Part shown: positions 3,741 through 30,403 of the stretch, in pieces
Numbering within the stretch: the first letter of the stretch is position 1
Layout of the letters: each line of letters opens with the position of its first letter
Translations under genes and position numbers: made by a program
Origin: a virus
IMG/VR virus record: IMGVR_UViG_3300045988_017036
Direction: 5' to 3' (one strand)
Length of the DNA stretch: 45,268 nucleotides
Notes under the pieces: generated by a model
Told to the model about the DNA's origin: nothing
The model's database searches: none
The model's input: only the letters and a program-made list of their open reading frames with translations

Positions 3741-4550
3741 AAATGATAAGTGAAGTAGATATTGAACAAAAGATTCTTAAAGAACACGCTGAAGAAAGAC
3801 AGCCTTGTGAAGTATGGTCTCGTTAACCTACTAGCGTGACCTTTTAAAAACGATGCCTAAACGGGGAAACTCTCACTGAGACAATCCCGTGCTAAACACT
3901 ATATGAGAAACCCTTGGAGGTTGATATATGATGATTGAAATCTGGAAAGACATCCCTGAATGGGAAGGACTCTATCAAGTATCTAATATGGGTAGAGTCA
4001 AGAATACTAAAAGAAACAAAGTCAAAGTCCTTGATATGAACAATGCAGGTTATCTCAGAGTCCAGCTTTGTGATAACACCAGGCGCAAGAAATACTTTAT
4101 CCATCGTCTGGTAGCCCATGCGTTTGTTGATGGTTACTTCGATGGCGCTCAGATAAATCACATTGACATGGATAGGACTAACAACTGTGCTGACAATCTT
4201 GAATGGGTAACTCCTAGTGAAAACCAAAAGAAAGCTGTGGCTATCAAAGGGTTGCACAAAGGACACTTTAAAGACGTACCTTACAAGATCACTTTTAGTA
4301 ATGGAGCTACAATCTACTTCGATAATATGCCCCTTGTCGCTAGGTCTGTTGGTCTGTCCAAGAGTCTTCTCTATTACAGACTCAACGGTAAAGACAAGGT
4401 TTATCTTAAAGAAGTCGATGGGTATCTTTCCAAGTGTAATGCCTAGAGACTATCCGCACAGCGGAGTAAGTAGCATAATGCTATTGAAACGGTATCCATA
4501 GATGATATAGTCCGAACTCATAGGCGACTATGAGATTAACATAATTGGTG
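3741..4550 (+). mobile_element. group I intron 2 in nrdD (about 0.8 kb; the 5' boundary is uncertain), carrying a NUMOD4/HNH_3 endonuclease ORF
   Basis: 5' core element GGGGAAACTCTCACTGAGACAATCCCGTGC (3863) is homologous to intron 1. R-like element AGAGACTATCCG (~4449), S element GATATAGTCCGA (4504..4515) and hairpin CTCATAG/CTATGAG. The downstream frame encodes the NrdD glycyl-radical tail. The junction 3740|4551 satisfies the U / omega-G rules and reproduces the E. coli NrdD spacing of 15 residues between the last Cys and the radical Gly. P1 is only weak (GTGACC at 3836). Confidence 0.55.
3928..4446 (+). CDS. intron-encoded HNH homing endonuclease (NUMOD4 plus HNH_3 type)
   Basis: WKDIPEWEGLYQVSNMGRVKN (NUMOD4-like) and HRLVAHAFV...INHIDMDRTNNCADNLEWVTPSENQKKA (HNH_3). 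Strong RBS GGAGG. Confidence 0.85.
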   Translation: MMIEIWKDIPEWEGLYQVSNMGRVKNTKRNKVKVLDMNNAGYLRVQLCDNTRRKKYFIHRLVAHAFVDGYFDGAQINHIDMDRTNNCADNLEWVTPSENQKKAVAIKGLHKGHFKDVPYKITFSNGATIYFDNMPLVARSVGLSKSLLYYRLNGKDKVYLKEVDGYLSKCNA

Positions 4551-4655
4551 ATGGGTTACCTTAGACCTACCTCCGGCTACAATAAAGGTAAGATAGGAGA
4601 GTTTAATGAACGAAAGTTTTTTAAAGAACCAAAAGCTAAAGATATACAGTGCTGA
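4551..4655 (+). CDS. nrdD: NrdD exon 3 (34-codon micro-exon with the glycyl-radical motif)
   Basis: Translates to MGYLRPTSGYNKGKIGEFNERKFFKEPKAKDIQC*. Compare E. coli NrdD ...RVCGYLGSPDARPFNAGKQEEVKRR. Same absolute frame as exon 2. Overlaps the start of the next gene in another frame. Confidence 0.5.
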   Translation: MGYLRPTSGYNKGKIGEFNERKFFKEPKAKDIQC

Positions 4656-4848
4656 TTGGTGTATGAAGTGTAGGAGCCTCAAGAACACTTTGGATAGACT
4701 TGGAGTATCCTATGAAGTTATAGATGTATCTAAGTTATCAGAAGAAGAATATGCCTCAATTCGTGAGCTTCCTACTATTGAACTCAATAATAATAGACTT
4801 TCTGGTGAAATACATTTGAAAGCCCTAAAAGAATTCTTGGGTTTGTAA
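4606..4848 (+). CDS. glutaredoxin / NrdH-like small redoxin
   Basis: 80 aa with a thioredoxin-fold CxxC (YSADWCMKCRSL). Located next to nrdD. Confidence 0.6.
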   Translation: MNESFLKNQKLKIYSADWCMKCRSLKNTLDRLGVSYEVIDVSKLSEEEYASIRELPTIELNNNRLSGEIHLKALKEFLGL

Positions 4849-4851
4849 AAT

Positions 4852-5130
4852 ATGCTGGTATTAGATGACGAGGATGTCAAGAAGATTGCTGATGGTGTAT
4901 TGCAGTCTTCTCCTCCTGCTGTGGTCTCCTCATGTACTCTTCTTGGCTTCCCGTTATCTGATTGGGTTTATATAGCAACAATCATTTATACATTTGTTGG
5001 AATCCTTAGTATCATAAAGAGATATTGGGTTGACCCCTATCTTAGAGCTAAAAGAAGACTAAGAGAAATAGAAGCAAGGATTAAAAGAGAACATGAGCAA
5101 CAAGAAAAAGAAAACCACACAAGAACTTGA
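4852..5130 (+). CDS. type II holin (T7 gp17.5-like)
   Basis: A single central TM segment (WVYIATIIYTFVGILSII) with a charged C-terminal tail. Resembles T7 gp17.5 and lies immediately upstream of terS, as in T7. Confidence 0.6.
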   Translation: MLVLDDEDVKKIADGVLQSSPPAVVSSCTLLGFPLSDWVYIATIIYTFVGILSIIKRYWVDPYLRAKRRLREIEARIKREHEQQEKENHTRT

Positions 5131-18204: not shown

Positions 18205-18278
18205 TGGGGTATAGCTCAATGGCAGAGCACTTGGCTTTGACCCAAGGGATGTAGGTTCAATTCCTGCTGCCCCTGCCA
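18205..18278 (+). tRNA. tRNA-Gln (anticodon UUG)
   Basis: Cloverleaf. D arm GCTC-AATGGCA-GAGC. Anticodon arm CTTGG-CTTTGAC-CCAAG. T arm GTAGG-TTCAATT-CCTGC. Unpaired 1:72 position, G73 and CCA, as in bacterial tRNA-Gln. Confidence 0.75.
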
Positions 18279-20567: not shown

Positions 20568-22346
20568 ATGCTGAACGACAGTGAAAAACTGATTGATTAC
20601 ACAACAAAGAAATACTTAATCACAGACATTGAGACGAATGGTTTGTTAGATACTGTCTCAAAGTTCTGGTGTGCTTGGTGCTATGACTATGAGCGTAAGT
20701 CATACATTGGATTCAAAGACATTGATCTTTATGTTGCCTATCTGGAAGATGCTGTAGATAAAGGTTATCGTCTGGTCTATCACAATGGAATTAAATATGA
20801 CATACCTGCATTAAAGAAGATCATGGGTAGAGACTTGAAGTTCAACCCAAGGGAATGTGTCGTTGATACTCTTGTCTTAGCTAGGCTCATCTACACACAG
20901 ATTAAGGACATTGATATTGGCTTGATTAAGTCCGGCAGACTCCCTAAGAAACTCTATGGCTCTCACTCATTGAAAGCTTGGGGTTATCGTCTGGGAATCT
21001 TGAAGGGAACTTACGGTGAACAAGAAGAAGCTTGGAATCAATTCTCAGAAGAGATGTACGAATACTGTAAGCAGGACGTTGCAGTTACTCTAGAACTCTT
21101 CTCTTTGTTGTTTAAGAAGCAATATCCTGTATCCTCCATTGAGCTTGAGCATAGCATTGCTTGGGTGATGGCTAAACAGGAACGCAACGGGTTTGTCTTT
21201 GACTATGATAAAGCGGTTACTCTTTATGCTACTCTTAGTGCTAAACGTAGTGAGATTGAAGATAAACTTGTGAAGACTTTTGGCTCATGGGAGAAATACA
21301 TTGGAGACAAAATCTACAAAAGAGACAACGCTAAACGAGGGATTGTTGCTGGCGTACCTTACCCACAGTATGAAACGGTGGTTTTCAACCCTAGCAGCCG
21401 TGAGCATATTGCTAAAGTCCTTATGGAAAGGGGGTGGACTCCGACAGTATTCACAGAAACAGGAAAACCTAAAGTAGACGAAGAGACTCTACAGTCTGCT
21501 ATGGATATACCGGAAACAAAGCTAATCCTTGAATACTTGTTGATACAGAAGCGTATCTCTCAGTTAGCTGAGGGTGATTTTGCTTGGCTGAAGATGGAGA
21601 AGAAAGATGGTGATGGTATCCATAGAATTCACGGTAGCGTTAATCCTAACGGGACTGTTACTGGTCGTGCATCTCATAGCTTCCCTAATGTTGCACAAGT
21701 TCCTGCGGGACATTCAGAATATGGAAAGGAATGCAGGGAGCTTTTTAGAGTACCTGAAGGATGGTACGAATGTGGCATTGACGCTTGTGGACTTGAGTTG
21801 CGTTGCCTTGCTCATTTCCTTTATCCATATGATAAGGGTGAGTACGGTGATATTATCTTAAATGGTGACATCCATACGCATAACCAACAGCTTGCTGGGT
21901 TACCTACTCGTGACATGGCGAAGACATTTTGTTATGGACTTTTGTACGGAGCTGGCAATGAGAAGATCGGTTCAATCATTGGTGGTAGTGCTGCTGAAGG
22001 TAAAGCTTTGAAAGACAAGTTTATGAAGGGACTACCGGCATACAAGAAGTTAACTAAAGCTATCCACAATGCCTTGGTAGAAGATGAGAGGTTTATAGGT
22101 GGTAAAAACATTGTTAAATGGCGTAAGAGATTCCATCGTGATAATCCTAGTCTTGATATTACTCATAGTCTCATTGGTCTTGATGGTCGCATTCTTTATT
22201 GTCGCTCTCCCCATAGCGCTCTTAATCTACTGCTTCAGTCCGCAGGTGCGCTCGTCTGTAAGCAGTGGGTGGTCTTCTGGGAAGAAGGAATGAGAGCTAG
22301 AGGTTTCGATCATCACAACGACTTTAGGTTGCAAGCTTGGGTGCAT
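20568..22346 (+). CDS. DNA polymerase (T7 gp5 family), exon 1
   Basis: Exonuclease and polymerase motifs collinear with T7 gp5 (ITDIETNGL, KQERNGF, RIHGSVNPNGTVTGRASHSFPNVAQ, LELRCLAHF, KTFCYGLLYGAG, SPHSALNLLLQSAGAL). The frame breaks after ...QAWVH. Confidence 0.9.
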
Positions 22347-22973
22347 AACCTTTCACATTGTGCACGTTAAACTAGGTTAATTCGGTGAAGCCCCACGAGG
22401 GTAATACCGAGCTAAACATGGAGGAAACTATGCGTGGTAAACCGTTAATCTTTACTACCACTAAAGACGGTTGCATAGTTTCTACCTCACACAGACTCAA
22501 TCAAGATGGGTATCTCAGAGTGAGAGACCCTAGTTATAGAGGCTCTGGTCGTGCTCCACTTGTCATGTATCATCGTTACGTTTGGGAATACTTGAAAGGT
22601 TCTATTCCTGAATGTAAGGAGATACATCATAAGTGTCACAATCGAGCCTGCTGTAACATAGATCATCTGGAATTGATTGATATTGTCGAACATAAGTGTG
22701 AACATAATCACACTAGGTATAAGAATAGAAAAGATGAAGCTTATGCCTATTGGTTAGACAATAAAGATATTTCCGGTACTGATCTAGGTGAGCTGTTCGG
22801 AGTCTCTTTTTCTACTGGTTGTAGGTGGATAAGAGAATGGAAGTGTAGAGACTAGGAATATTCCGTAGGGGCTATGGGTGAAACTCCCATAGTCTCGAAA
22901 TGCCTAGCACAGCTAATACCAATAGGCTGTGAAGATATAGTCCGACACCCGTAGTAATATGGGAAACAGTAGG
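22347..22973 (+). mobile_element. group I intron in the DNA polymerase gene (627 nt), carrying an HNH endonuclease
   Basis: The exon ends TGGGTGCAT, with a perfect 6-bp P1 to GTGCAC (22361..22366). R-like element AGAGACTAGG (~22845). S element GATATAGTCCGA (22934..22945) plus hairpin CCCGTA/TATGGG. Omega G at 22973. The spliced product reads ...AWVH|DEIQVACRTKEIA, matching T7 AWVHDEIQVGCRTEEIA. Confidence 0.8.
22418..22855 (+). CDS. intron-encoded HNH homing endonuclease
   Basis: HHKCHNRACCNIDHLEL HNH motif. ATG at 22418, within track ORF 22385..22855. Confidence 0.8.
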   Translation: MEETMRGKPLIFTTTKDGCIVSTSHRLNQDGYLRVRDPSYRGSGRAPLVMYHRYVWEYLKGSIPECKEIHHKCHNRACCNIDHLELIDIVEHKCEHNHTRYKNRKDEAYAYWLDNKDISGTDLGELFGVSFSTGCRWIREWKCRD

Positions 22974-23129
22974 GATGAAATTCAGGTTGCTTGTCGCACT
23001 AAAGAGATTGCTGATGCTTGTGTAGAGATTGCACAGGAAGCTATGAGAAAGACTCAGGAACACTTTAAGTTTAACTGTCAGTTGGATACCGAAGGAAAGA
23101 TCGGGCATAACTGGATGGAATGTCACTAA
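22974..23129 (+). CDS. DNA polymerase exon 2 (C-terminal 51 aa)
   Basis: DEIQVACRTKEIADACVEIAQEAMRKTQEHFKFNCQLDTEGKIGHNWMECH aligns with the C-terminus of T7 gp5. Not in the ORF track, presumably because the stand-alone ORF falls below the size cut-off. Confidence 0.85.
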   Translation, partial: DEIQVACRTKEIADACVEIAQEAMRKTQEHFKFNCQLDTEGKIGHNWMECH

Positions 23130-27956: not shown

Positions 27957-28121
27957 ATGGCAGCTCTTAATGATAATTCTATTTCCAATCCTGGTCAACA
28001 ACTGAGTACTGGTGATCGCCGTGCGTTGTTCCTGAAGATTTTTGCAGGTGAAGTTCTGACGGCTTTTGCTCGTACCACGGTTATGATGGACAAGCATATT
28101 GTCCGAACCATTAACTACGGT
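27957..28121 (+). CDS. major capsid protein (T7 gp10-like), exon 1 (55 aa)
   Basis: MAALNDN...RRALFLKIFAGEVLTAFARTTVMMDKHIVRTINYG matches T7 gp10A residues ~20-75 (KLALFLKVFGGEVLTAFARTSV...HMVRSISSG). Confidence 0.85.
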
Positions 28122-28762
28122 AATTGATTTGCTGTAGTAAAACTCTTTTAATTGCTGGGAACTCCTATAGATAGGACAATCAGCAGCTAAGACTAACCGA
28201 AAGGTAGTAAAGTTCAACGACTAGTTTTTATAACGTAGGTATCAAGTGATACCGAAATGGAGAGATATATTATTATGAGCGAAAGCACCGAGATGGGCTT
28301 TAAGGAGTGCAAACTCTGCAAACAGGTTAAACCTTTGTCAGAGTTCTACTATAGAAAAGATAGCAAAGACTATCGTGCTGAGTGCAAGCAATGCAGGAAA
28401 AACTATGAACGTCTTAAAAAGACTGGATGGTCTCCTGAAGCTTATGAGTATGCTTGGTATCATCAGAATGGTAAGTGTGCTATATGTGGTTGTGAGTTAG
28501 GCTCTAGTAGATATACTAAACCTGCCGCAGATCACGATCATAAGACGGGTAAACTTAGAGGTATTCTCTGTACTCAATGCAATACAGCTTTAGGTCTTAT
28601 GAAAGATTCTCCTTATAGGCTTGAGTCCGCGATTCGTTATTTAGAAGAACACGGAAATAATATATAAGATATAGTCTGATCTCATAGGTAACTATGAGCC
28701 GTCTAGGGTGGGAACCTAGATGGAGCTACGGGGTAACGCCTGTAGTGAAACATGAGGCAACG
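28122..28762 (+). mobile_element. group I intron in the major capsid gene (641 nt), carrying an EndoVII-type HNH endonuclease
   Basis: The exon ends ACTACGGT, with P1 to GCTGTA (28131..28136). Core carries GGGAACTCC...GGACAATCAGCAGC, classic R element GTTCAACGACTAG (~28214) and S element GATATAGTCTGA (28668..28679) plus hairpin CTCATAG/CTATGAG. Omega G at 28762. The spliced product reads TINYG|KSASFPVMGRT, matching T7 SISSGKSAQFPVLGRT. Confidence 0.85.
28257..28667 (+). CDS. intron-encoded HNH endonuclease (His-Me finger with Zn-binding Cys pairs)
   Basis: CKLC...CKQC...CAIC...DHDHKTGKLRGILCTQCNTALG. The start is probably ATG at 28275 after GGAGAG. Confidence 0.85.
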   Translation: MERYIIMSESTEMGFKECKLCKQVKPLSEFYYRKDSKDYRAECKQCRKNYERLKKTGWSPEAYEYAWYHQNGKCAICGCELGSSRYTKPAADHDHKTGKLRGILCTQCNTALGLMKDSPYRLESAIRYLEEHGNNI

Positions 28763-29572
28763 AAATCCGCCTCGTTCCCTGTTATGGGTCGTACTCATGC
28801 TAAGTACCTTGAACCCGGCAATAGCTTGGACGATCAACGTAAGAAGATGGAACACACCGAGAAGGTCATCGAGATCGATGGTCTTCTTACGGCTGACTGC
28901 TTGATTACTGATATTGACGAAGCAATGAACCACTATGATGTGCGTTCTGAATACTCTCGTCAACTTGGTGAAGCTCTTGCTCAGGCTGCTGACTGTGCTG
29001 TTATCAATGAACTTGCTAATCTGGCAGCTAAGAAGACTGCTGGTATGCAAGAAAATATTCCTGCAAACTCTACTCTTAAAAACCCCGGTACGGGTAAGGC
29101 TTTTGAATTTGTTACCGGTATGGACGAAGCTCAATCCGCAGCTTATGGCAATAAGTTGCTTGAAGGTCTGATTGCTGCTCGTGCTGCATTTACCCGTAAC
29201 TATGTGCCTCAGGCTGATCGTTACTTCTTGACGACTCCTGAAGGTTACTCTGCTATTCTCCGTGCGTTGATGCCTGATGCGGCTAACTATGCGGCTCTCT
29301 TTGACCCGTCTAGCGGTCGCTTGATGAATGTTGCTGGCTTCCAAATTATCGAAGTTCCGCACTTCATTAACGATGGTGTTGACAGCAAGCACACCCTCAA
29401 GGCACAACTTACGACTGCTGTGTTGCAAGGTATTGTCTTCCATCGTTCCGCTGTGGGTACTGTGAAGCTCCGTGATCTTGCTATGGAACAAGCACGTAGA
29501 GCTGAATATCAGGCAGATCAAATCATTGCCAAGTACGCGATAAACAAAACCTGTCGCGTTAATCTTTTCTAA
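28763..29572 (+). CDS. major capsid protein, exon 2
   Basis: KSASFPVMGRTHAKYLEPGNSLDDQRK...HRSAVGTVKLRDLAMEQARRAEYQADQIIAKYA is collinear with T7 gp10A. The spliced protein would be about 324 aa. Confidence 0.9.
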   Translation, partial: KSASFPVMGRTHAKYLEPGNSLDDQRKKMEHTEKVIEIDGLLTADCLITDIDEAMNHYDVRSEYSRQLGEALAQAADCAVINELANLAAKKTAGMQENIPANSTLKNPGTGKAFEFVTGMDEAQSAAYGNKLLEGLIAARAAFTRNYVPQADRYFLTTPEGYSAILRALMPDAANYAALFDPSSGRLMNVAGFQIIEVPHFINDGVDSKHTLKAQLTTAVLQGIVFHRSAVGTVKLRDLAMEQARRAEYQADQIIAKYAINKTCRVNLF

Positions 29573-29641: not shown

Positions 29642-30403
29642 GTGAGTAAGTATAACGAAACTCTTAATAAATATCTTGCAGGGTTTATTGATGCAGATGG
29701 AACCCTTGCATTTCACTTTAATAAAACTGTAGATGGATATTTTAGAATAGGTTTACAGTTTGGTATTACACAGATAGACAACAGAGGCAGAGGCTTTAAG
29801 CTTCTGGAATTCCTTAAAGAATCCTATTGTGTAGGAAGTCTGTCTGATGTGCCAAGTAAAAAACAAAAGTATTGGAAGGTAGCAAATAAAGATGAACTCG
29901 AAAAGTTCTTACCTCATGTAATCAAACACATGGTTATTAAAGGTAAGCATTTTCAAAGAATGCTAGAGAAACGAAGAGAACTAGCAGGAGTTAATCTTAC
30001 GCAAGAACAAGTAGATGCCTTGAGACAATTTGCTAAAGAATCAAGGAAAGATACCGGTGCTATCCGATACAAAAAGAATGCTAGCCCTGCATGGTTAGCT
30101 GGATATATAGATGGTGATGGATACCTAAGACATTCTGATAAAGAACATTGGCTTAAAATCCATGTACAAACTTCTGATGTTGTTGCTGTAGAATTAATAC
30201 AGAACACTTATGGTGGTAAGATATACCCGACAACAAAAGAAAACATAAAAGAGTTTCGATTAAACTTTGGAGCATCGTTCTACGGAACTGCTAACAAAGT
30301 ATTGAAGGCTATCATTCCGCATCTAAGAATAAAAAGACATGATGCTGAAATGATTCTTCATTGGCACAAGCAACGACTAAGTGAAAAGAACTCTACGGAG
30401 TAA
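29642..30403 (+). CDS. free-standing LAGLIDADG homing endonuclease (double-motif)
   Basis: Two LAGLIDADG motifs (LAGFIDADG and LAGYIDGDG). GTG start after RBS TAGGAGA. Lies between the capsid gene and the tail genes. Confidence 0.85.
   Translation: MSKYNETLNKYLAGFIDADGTLAFHFNKTVDGYFRIGLQFGITQIDNRGRGFKLLEFLKESYCVGSLSDVPSKKQKYWKVANKDELEKFLPHVIKHMVIKGKHFQRMLEKRRELAGVNLTQEQVDALRQFAKESRKDTGAIRYKKNASPAWLAGYIDGDGYLRHSDKEHWLKIHVQTSDVVAVELIQNTYGGKIYPTTKENIKEFRLNFGASFYGTANKVLKAIIPHLRIKRHDAEMILHWHKQRLSEKNSTE

Follow-up and report, generated by a model that had tools for sequence, protein, structure and literature searches.

A group I intron carrying an HNH endonuclease gene splits the catalytic HDE motif of the DNA polymerase gene in an uncultured T7-like phage

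The DNA polymerase gene in the window, by which we mean the whole 45,268-nucleotide stretch of viral DNA analyzed here (IMG/VR record IMGVR_UViG_3300045988_017036), is interrupted close to its 3' end. We consider it highly probable (about 95%) that the interrupting segment is a mobile group I intron of subgroup IA2, lying between the His and Asp codons of the HDE motif, and that splicing restores the polymerase. The original prediction, made from the sequence alone, had proposed a polymerase gene split 51 codons before its end by an HNH-carrying group I intron, and this is borne out by what we observe: exact exon boundaries, ribozyme helices with covariation, an Rfam match, an intact HNH motif, homologous introns at the same site, and an intronless allele that reveals a presence/absence polymorphism. 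Its coordinates and numbers (627 nt, 51 codons, 644 amino acids, and a 56-amino-acid open reading frame [ORF]) were all correct; it was silent on the fact that the intron family and its insertion site had already been published.

In the ORF list, the polymerase is a 600-amino-acid ORF, 20568..22370, whose start codon was taken by assumption to be the first ATG. As had been suspected, this ORF ends in junk: it overruns the true exon end at 22346 by 8 codons, and its tail reads ...QAWVHNLSHCAR before the stop. The last codon of exon 1, CAT, encodes the His of the catalytic HDE motif (motif C), and the first codon of exon 2, GAT, encodes the catalytic Asp (T7 D654, E. coli Pol I D882). The continuation had been placed 627 nt downstream, where automated annotation would leave an orphan 56-amino-acid ORF, and that ORF is indeed listed, at 22959..23129. 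It reads MGNSRDEIQVACRTKEIA...HNWMECH before its stop; from 22974 it reads DEIQVACRTKEIA...HNWMECH, which is in frame and matches the C terminus of T7 gp5. Joined, the two exons encode an in-frame protein of 644 amino acids. Exon 1 matches positions 29-334 of the 381-position Pfam model DNA_pol_A and the 56-amino-acid ORF matches positions 335-381, exactly contiguous, so that the C-terminal fragment aligns with the end of family A polymerases. Comparison of the joined protein with T7 gp5 (PDB 6n7w), a check that had been set beforehand, gave a full match through the last residue, 704 (E 8.6e-183), free of gaps across the junction (awvh/deiqvacrtkeia versus awvhdeiqvgcrteeia, the slash marking the insertion point). 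The insertion point VH/DE aligns to T7 H653/D654. T7 D654 (704 - 51 + 1) is the motif C catalytic aspartate, and E. coli Pol I H881-D882-E883 is the motif C HDE, which corresponds to the junction in the window. Contiguous Pfam matches together with a gap-free match to T7 gp5 across the junction are far beyond chance.

At 644 amino acids, the window polymerase is shorter than T7 gp5 (704 amino acids), and T7 residues ~269-317 are without a counterpart in the alignment, their place in the window being 21300..21340 (residues ~245-257). These T7 residues are part of the thioredoxin-binding loop. Judging from this alignment, host thioredoxin may not be the processivity factor of this phage's polymerase.

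Table 1. Features of the interrupted polymerase gene, its intron, and the intron-encoded gene (coordinates of the window)
Feature	Position	Strand	Strands or remarks	Evidence
DNA polymerase exon 1 (T7 gp5-like, family A)	20568..22346	+		ORF list, Pfam, joined-product alignment to T7 gp5
Group I intron, subgroup IA2, 627 nt	22347..22973	+		Rfam, helices, covariation, intronless allele
P1 hairpin	22341..22365	+	exon GUGCAU 22341-46 / internal guide sequence GUGCAC 22360-65	
P10 (possible), 5 bp	22351-55 / 22976-80	+	P1 loop UUUCA / exon 2 UGAAA	
P3	22372-22377 / 22902-22907	+	CUAGGU / GCCUAG	
P4	22381-86 / 22406-11	+	UUCGGU / ACCGAG; P4-P5 domain 22381..22411	
P5	22391-93 / 22399-401	+	CCC / GGG	
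P6	22412-22413 / 22842-22843	+	CU / AG; P6a loop beyond houses the endonuclease gene	
Shine-Dalgarno sequence	22420..22425	+	GGAGGA, 4 nt upstream of ATG 22430	
HNH homing endonuclease gene, 141 amino acids, I-TslI-like	22430..22855	+		Pfam HNH_3, homolog alignment
R element	22845..22854	+	GUAGAGACUA	Rfam and helix comparison
P7	22850-54 / 22938-42	+	GACUA / UAGUC	
P7.1 hairpin	22855-64	+	followed by GUA linker 22865-67	
P7.2 hairpin	22868-96	+		11-bp stem by inspection
P8 hairpin	22908..22931	+	CACAGC...GCUGUG	homolog comparison, MFE fold
S element	22932..22943	+	AAGATATAGTCC / AAGAUAUAGUCC, J8/7 plus P7 3' strand	Rfam
P9 hairpin	22948..22963	+	CCCGUA-GUAA-UAUGGG	homolog comparison, MFE fold
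DNA polymerase exon 2	22974..23129	+	51 codons plus stop	Pfam, T7 gp5 alignment, intronless allele

The noncoding parts of the insert have the architecture of a group I ribozyme (Table 1). The 5' splice site lies after U22346, and the terminal (omega) G, 22973, directly precedes the GAT codon that opens exon 2. All core helices from P3 to P9 form, and with them the P3/P7 pseudoknot; P2 is absent, and P1 and P3 are separated by the spacer GUUAAA. P1 consists of 6 bp, among them a U22346·G22360 wobble at the splice site, and on inspection only it could be extended by 2 bp (AA/UU). Both hallmarks of group I splice sites, the U·G wobble in P1 and the omega G at the 3' end, are thus present. The pairing that had been proposed for P1 needs a correction: the partner GTGCAC stands, and of the cited string TGGGTGCAT GTGCAT alone pairs, in 6 bp of which one is the wobble. 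The S element, also predicted, is found at 22932-22943. P7.1 and P7.2 lie between P7 and the 3' strand of P3 and are joined by GUA, the arrangement given for subgroup IA2 in PMC3428280; peripheral helices of this kind are typical of subgroup IA. An unconstrained minimum free energy (MFE) fold of the ORF-deleted intron recovered P1, P3, P4, P5, P7.1, P7.2, P8, and P9, at -68.4 kcal/mol (z = -2.7).

Covariation was assessed on introns inserted at the same site, gathered from GenBank (phages 13a, VSG32, K1F, PT2, Vp_R1, and PE006) and, with a core-motif scan, from IMG/VR contigs, of which 32 (L135-L165 and L043) contain the window-type motif. All helices can be formed in 16 of 16 sequences (the window and 15 homologous introns). 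Among these 16, P3 occurs as 7 distinct strand pairs: CUAGGU/GCCUAG, UCUGGU/GCCAGA, CUUUGU/GCAAAG, CUCAUU/GGUGAG, GUUGGU/GCCAAC, GUAGGU/GCCUAC, and UCAGGU/GCCUGA. In a plain MAFFT alignment of the ORF-deleted introns (A1), P7.2 and P8 were out of structural register; the strands were therefore extracted sequence by sequence, and a gapless, equal-length helix skeleton of 12 sequences (A2) was built for pair counting. In A2, 99.1% of cells are paired, a percentage inflated for P1, P8, and P9, whose strands were chosen partly on the basis of pairing or MFE folding, and 23 of 45 base pairs show compensatory changes on both sides. For P3, P4, P5, P6, P7.1, and P7.2, the strands were set solely by where they lie with respect to invariant anchors, and P7 is uninformative for covariation because it is invariant. 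None of 500 shuffles of A2 reached any of the observed measures, and controls in which the partners were slid by 1-3 columns left only 30-48% of cells paired. The introns also track their exons. The guide is GUGCAC with GTGCAT exons, GUGCAU with ATGCAT exons, and GUGG with TCCAT, and the P10 partner follows exon 2 (AUCUCAU/AUGAGAU in 13a, AUUUCAU/AUGAAAU in VSG32, and UUUCA/UGAAA in the window).

A default Rfam scan of the window, at gathering thresholds, found the capsid intron described below and gave no match at the polymerase intron. In a lax scan, the model Intron_gpI (RF00028) matched there with 36.6 bits (E 1.3e-7), short of the 50-bit gathering threshold, which is a database criterion and not a biological one. 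The lax alignment places the R element with P7, the 3' strand of P3, P8, J8/7 with the 3' strand of P7 (AAGAUAUAGUCC), and P9 at high posterior probability. Its 5' half (P1-P6) is misaligned into the ORF because the model cannot place the 430-nt insert in P6a, and those helices were therefore located by comparison with homologs. The RefSeq-annotated introns score alike (37.9 bits in 13a and 35.7 bits in K1F), and three natural copies of the window-type intron lacking most of the homing endonuclease gene (HEG-deleted copies) score 43.8, 48.5, and 51.6 bits, one of the three passing the cutoff. These scores agree with the view that a large share of the shortfall comes from the 430-nt ORF in P6a. 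Scoring below the Rfam threshold characterizes the ORF-bearing intron family as a whole.

The start of the endonuclease gene at ATG 22430 (MRGKPLIF...) is supported by N-terminal alignment with homologs. The ORF list begins the gene at GTG 22385, giving 156 amino acids (22385..22855), and that GTG lies inside P4. Pfam finds an N-terminal HNH_3 match of 47.4 bits (1.5e-12; cutoff, 24.8) and a weak C-terminal helix-turn-helix match. Residues H48, N71, N76, H79, C69, C74, and C75 are invariant with homologs, and every residue invariant among six aligned homologs (five intron-encoded proteins and the free-standing T3 gp5.3) is kept in the window endonuclease. Amino acid identity to these six is 43-55%, the intron proteins of 13a, K1F, and PT2 being at 54-55% and T3 gp5.3 at 43%. 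A tblastn search finds near-full-length homologs encoded in 74 phage records; in the PDB, no sequence-detectable relative of the endonuclease was found.

Gene and ribozyme overlap. The ORF lies between the two strands of P6, in P6a, and its last codons overlap the 3' strand of P6, the R element, and the 5' strand of P7; the stop codon, TAG, spans the junction of P7 and P7.1, taking its TA from the end of the former and its G from the start of the latter. The window shares with one homologous copy, L043, the loss of a single base ahead of the R element; this puts the TAG normally used, inside GUAGAGACUA, out of frame, so that the stop comes 2 codons later. The P7.1 stem is inverted in the same two copies (GGA/UCC in the window and GGU/ACC in L043, versus UCC/GGA elsewhere). 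The 1-nt deletion (window 22842..22857) thus co-occurs with the inverted P7.1 in both, which may, as far as the sequences go, reflect co-adaptation of ORF and ribozyme.

Uninterrupted matches to the joined protein were found in the IMG/VR contigs L127 (IMGVR_UViG_3300045988_031653; 95% amino acid identity) and L128 (86%). By blastn, window 20593-22346 corresponds to L127 3011-4764 and window 22974-23125 to L127 4765-4916, at 91-92% nucleotide identity. L127 reads TGGGTGCAT/GATGAAAT without interruption (in the longer stretch, ...GCATGGGTGCAT/GATGAAATCC...; sequence at the insertion site, GCATGGGTGCATGATGAAATCCAAG), and L128 is likewise intronless. L127 is contiguous at the very junction deduced from the protein, and 22347..22973 is therefore an insertion relative to a near-identical intronless allele; L127 is a natural empty site. 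IMG/VR has no exact occurrence of a 31-mer taken from the window intron, and the nearest intron copies there are ~76% identical at the nucleotide level.

Other contigs show the polymerase gene interrupted in different ways. In L129 (IMGVR_UViG_3300045988_042751), whose polymerase gene is 90-93% identical to that of the window at the nucleotide level, a different, 681-nt insertion (4348..5028) sits in polymerase motif B (AKTF/CYG), equivalent to window ~21930; it has a subthreshold Rfam group I match (32.3 bits, E 2.9e-6) and a 168-amino-acid Endonuclease_7 ORF, and the contig ends before the H/DE site. We read this insertion, from its sequence, as a second intron site in the same gene of the same phage population. 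L136, L143, L146, and L124 hold copies of the window-type polymerase intron in which most of the endonuclease gene is deleted, such that positions ~10-190 and ~430-625 of the window intron are adjacent; the L124 intron is 419 nt long, and in both L136 and L124 a further group I intron match lies some hundreds of bases upstream. The HEG-deleted copies look like different stages of a cycle of homing endonuclease gain and loss.

Group I introns were first described in the T7-like phages ΦI and W31 in 2004, as recounted in PMC3428280. By that account, the polymerase introns of these phages are inserted at site 881 (E. coli numbering), carry the HNH endonuclease I-TslI in P6a, and serve as models for IA2 structure, with P7.1 and P7.2 joined by G-U-A and P2 absent; going by its title as cited there, Bonocora & Shub 2004 presents the intron as self-splicing. 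The review PMC3984707 does not mention the T7-like polymerase intron, and in PMC3073962 it is present as a reference entry only. Compared by this published description, the ΦI/W31 intron and that of the window share the host gene, Pol I site 881 (His/Asp of HDE), the group I IA2 architecture (no P2, P7.1/P7.2), the position of the endonuclease gene in P6a, and the HNH family. Sequences were compared through the close kin of ΦI and W31, Escherichia phages 13a (NC_011045, gene 5 join) and K1F (NC_007456, gene 5.0 join), in which RefSeq annotates the polymerase as a joined coding sequence. Their splice context, TGGGTGCAT/...G/GATGA, is identical to that of the window, the helices are the same, and the endonuclease is homologous (54-55% amino acid identity), at 65-72% nucleotide identity over the intron. 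The introns of 13a and K1F are 598-601 nt long, versus 627 nt in the window, and the window intron differs from them in its inverted P7.1 (GGA/UCC), in a P7.2 that forms a continuous 11-bp helix, and in the 1-nt deletion that puts the endonuclease stop 2 codons downstream, in P7/P7.1.

Intron and endonuclease are also present at H/DE in PT2, VSG32, Vp_R1, and PE006. That automated annotation would miscall a truncated polymerase had been anticipated, and GenBank holds such calls for all four: a truncated polymerase plus a small "polymerase" ORF in Aeromonas phage PT2 and Escherichia phage PE006, and a truncated polymerase only in Klebsiella phage VSG32 and Vibrio phage Vp_R1. Two of the four, Vp_R1 (Grimontviridae) and PE006, fall outside the T7-like phages; the intron family therefore spans more than one phage family, with the H/DE site kept. 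The Pf-WMP3 cyanophage intron with I-PfoP3I resembles that of the window in being IA2, in having its ORF in P6a, and in lacking P2 (PMC3428280). Like it, the introns of SPO1, SP82, and Bastille (I-HmuI, I-HmuII, and I-BasI) are group I introns with HNH endonucleases in phage family A polymerase genes; all of these differ from the window in their insertion at Pol I position 674, not 881, and their endonucleases are nicking enzymes. T3 gene 5.3 has an HNH catalytic domain homologous to the one in the window (43% identity over about 100 amino acids), but it is free-standing beside an intronless polymerase gene and is without the C-terminal helix-turn-helix extension. The T3 gene 5.3 endonuclease is reported, in work by Bonocora and Shub in 2009, to cut the same polymerase target. 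Searched by megablast, a set of 50,697 phage records gave no match to the region, and only a sensitive blastn mode found the GenBank intron relatives at 65-72% nucleotide identity. The window polymerase is 63-67% identical to those of two unannotated "Bacteriophage sp." records from human feces and at most 50% identical to those of cultured phages. We therefore take the window intron, on these identities, as a divergent new copy of a known family (65-76% nucleotide identity) in an uncultured T7-like phage and not as a new kind of element.

By analogy with these relatives, the window copy would be expected both to splice and to encode an active endonuclease. After transcription, the RNA would fold into the ribozyme (P1, P3-P9, and P7.1/P7.2). 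An exogenous guanosine bound in P7 would attack after U22346, which the U·G wobble fixes in P1; the 3'-OH released on exon 1 would then attack after the terminal G22973 and the exons would be joined, with the predicted RNA junction GGGUGCAU/GAUGAAAU (also written ...GCUUGGGUGCAU/GAUGAAAUUCAG...). The ligated exons would read ...AWVH-DEIQV..., restoring a full-length, 644-amino-acid T7-type DNA polymerase. The gene in P6a would be translated separately, via its own Shine-Dalgarno sequence, into an HNH endonuclease with a C-terminal helix-turn-helix. If it behaves like I-TslI of phage ΦI, this enzyme would make its cut close to the insertion site in the intronless alleles of relatives infecting the same cell; with the intron-bearing copy as repair template, the intron would spread by homing, for example into alleles like that of L127. 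The presence of the intron in the window and its absence from the 92%-identical L127 suggest homing, as indirect support.

A different account would make the insert a free-standing endonuclease gene with no functional ribozyme; either the polymerase would consist of two polypeptides (a "fractured gene") or its gene would be dead. The automated gene calls show exactly this split-gene picture, the exon 2 ORF has an in-frame ATG at 22959, the Rfam score is under the gathering threshold, and free-standing relatives of the endonuclease adjoin an intact polymerase gene in T3. However, the noncoding parts of the insert amount to a complete group I core with 23 compensatory pairs, it is bounded by canonical U/ and G/ splice sites, and the exon supplies one strand of P1; ATG 22959, by inspection, lies inside P9 and is without a Shine-Dalgarno sequence. 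The break falls between the catalytic His and Asp, where the enzyme would hardly tolerate a noncovalent split. RefSeq gives the homologs as spliced, and the ΦI/W31 intron is published as self-splicing (Bonocora & Shub 2004, title in PMC3428280). On balance, we regard this account as very improbable.

Removal at the protein level, of an intein or another in-frame insertion after translation, has almost no probability. It is general knowledge that inteins with HNH or LAGLIDADG domains occur in phage polymerase genes at conserved motifs, but here the exon 1 frame reaches a TAA after 8 codons (22368-70), which excludes an intein; the endonuclease has its own Shine-Dalgarno sequence and ATG, Pfam finds no Hint or intein motifs, and RNA structure with covariation accounts for the noncoding flanks. 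Somewhat less remote, though still unlikely, is a decaying intron, in which the ribozyme or the endonuclease of the window copy is nonfunctional. Decay does occur in this intron family, as the HEG-deleted or shortened copies in L136, L143, L146, and L124 attest. Against it, all helices are intact in the window and the endonuclease ORF is full length with all invariant residues, and in an essential polymerase a nonsplicing intron in an active-site motif would presumably be lethal.

The window contains further elements of this sort. A second group I intron, with an above-threshold Rfam match of 62.5 bits at 28075..28698, splits the T7-gp10-like major capsid gene, 27957..29572, the downstream exon of which matches Pfam Gp10A-like (3e-60); this intron carries a 136-amino-acid Endonuclease_7-family ORF, 28257..28667 (2.8e-21). 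Directly downstream of the capsid gene is a free-standing LAGLIDADG endonuclease ORF, 29642..30403 (253 amino acids; Pfam LAGLIDADG_1, 1.3e-10), which makes a third homing endonuclease family in the 45-kb window. In a tRNA-like gene of 119 nt, 17223..17341, the anticodon loop is CUUAUAA (anticodon UAU), and 46 nt are inserted at the place of the variable arm; the gene was found by the Rfam tRNA model above threshold (37.6 bits) and not called by ARAGORN, and the 46-nt insert may be a long variable arm or an intervening sequence. The tRNA-Arg(UCU) gene, 15797..15889 (93 nt), has an 18-nt insertion in its variable region, unusual for an Arg tRNA, and tRNA-Gln(UUG), 18205..18278, is ordinary.

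The polymerase intron itself opens no new question, and the finding, while correct, is ordinary because an intron family at this site was described in T7-like phages in 2004. Its immediate value lies in annotation: with the intron unrecognized, an essential polymerase is called a truncated 600-amino-acid protein plus an orphan 56-amino-acid ORF. It also shows that a mobile intron family known from cultured enterobacterial T7-like phages reaches into a divergent, uncultured lineage. A broader reading, to which we give slightly less than even odds, is that the polymerase gene is an active arena for several independent mobile introns and that ribozyme and endonuclease gene have co-adapted in the sublineage of the window. 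Its basis is that contigs more than 90% identical at the nucleotide level, from IMG/VR data set 3300045988, are intronless (L127) or carry the motif B intron (L129), and that other contigs have HEG-deleted copies or what may be two polymerase introns. If it is true, these phages would display the complete homing cycle as it occurs in nature (gain, fixation, and endonuclease decay) together with coevolution of ORF and ribozyme. The intronless and differently interrupted relatives are, in any case, material for the study of intron homing dynamics in natural phage populations.
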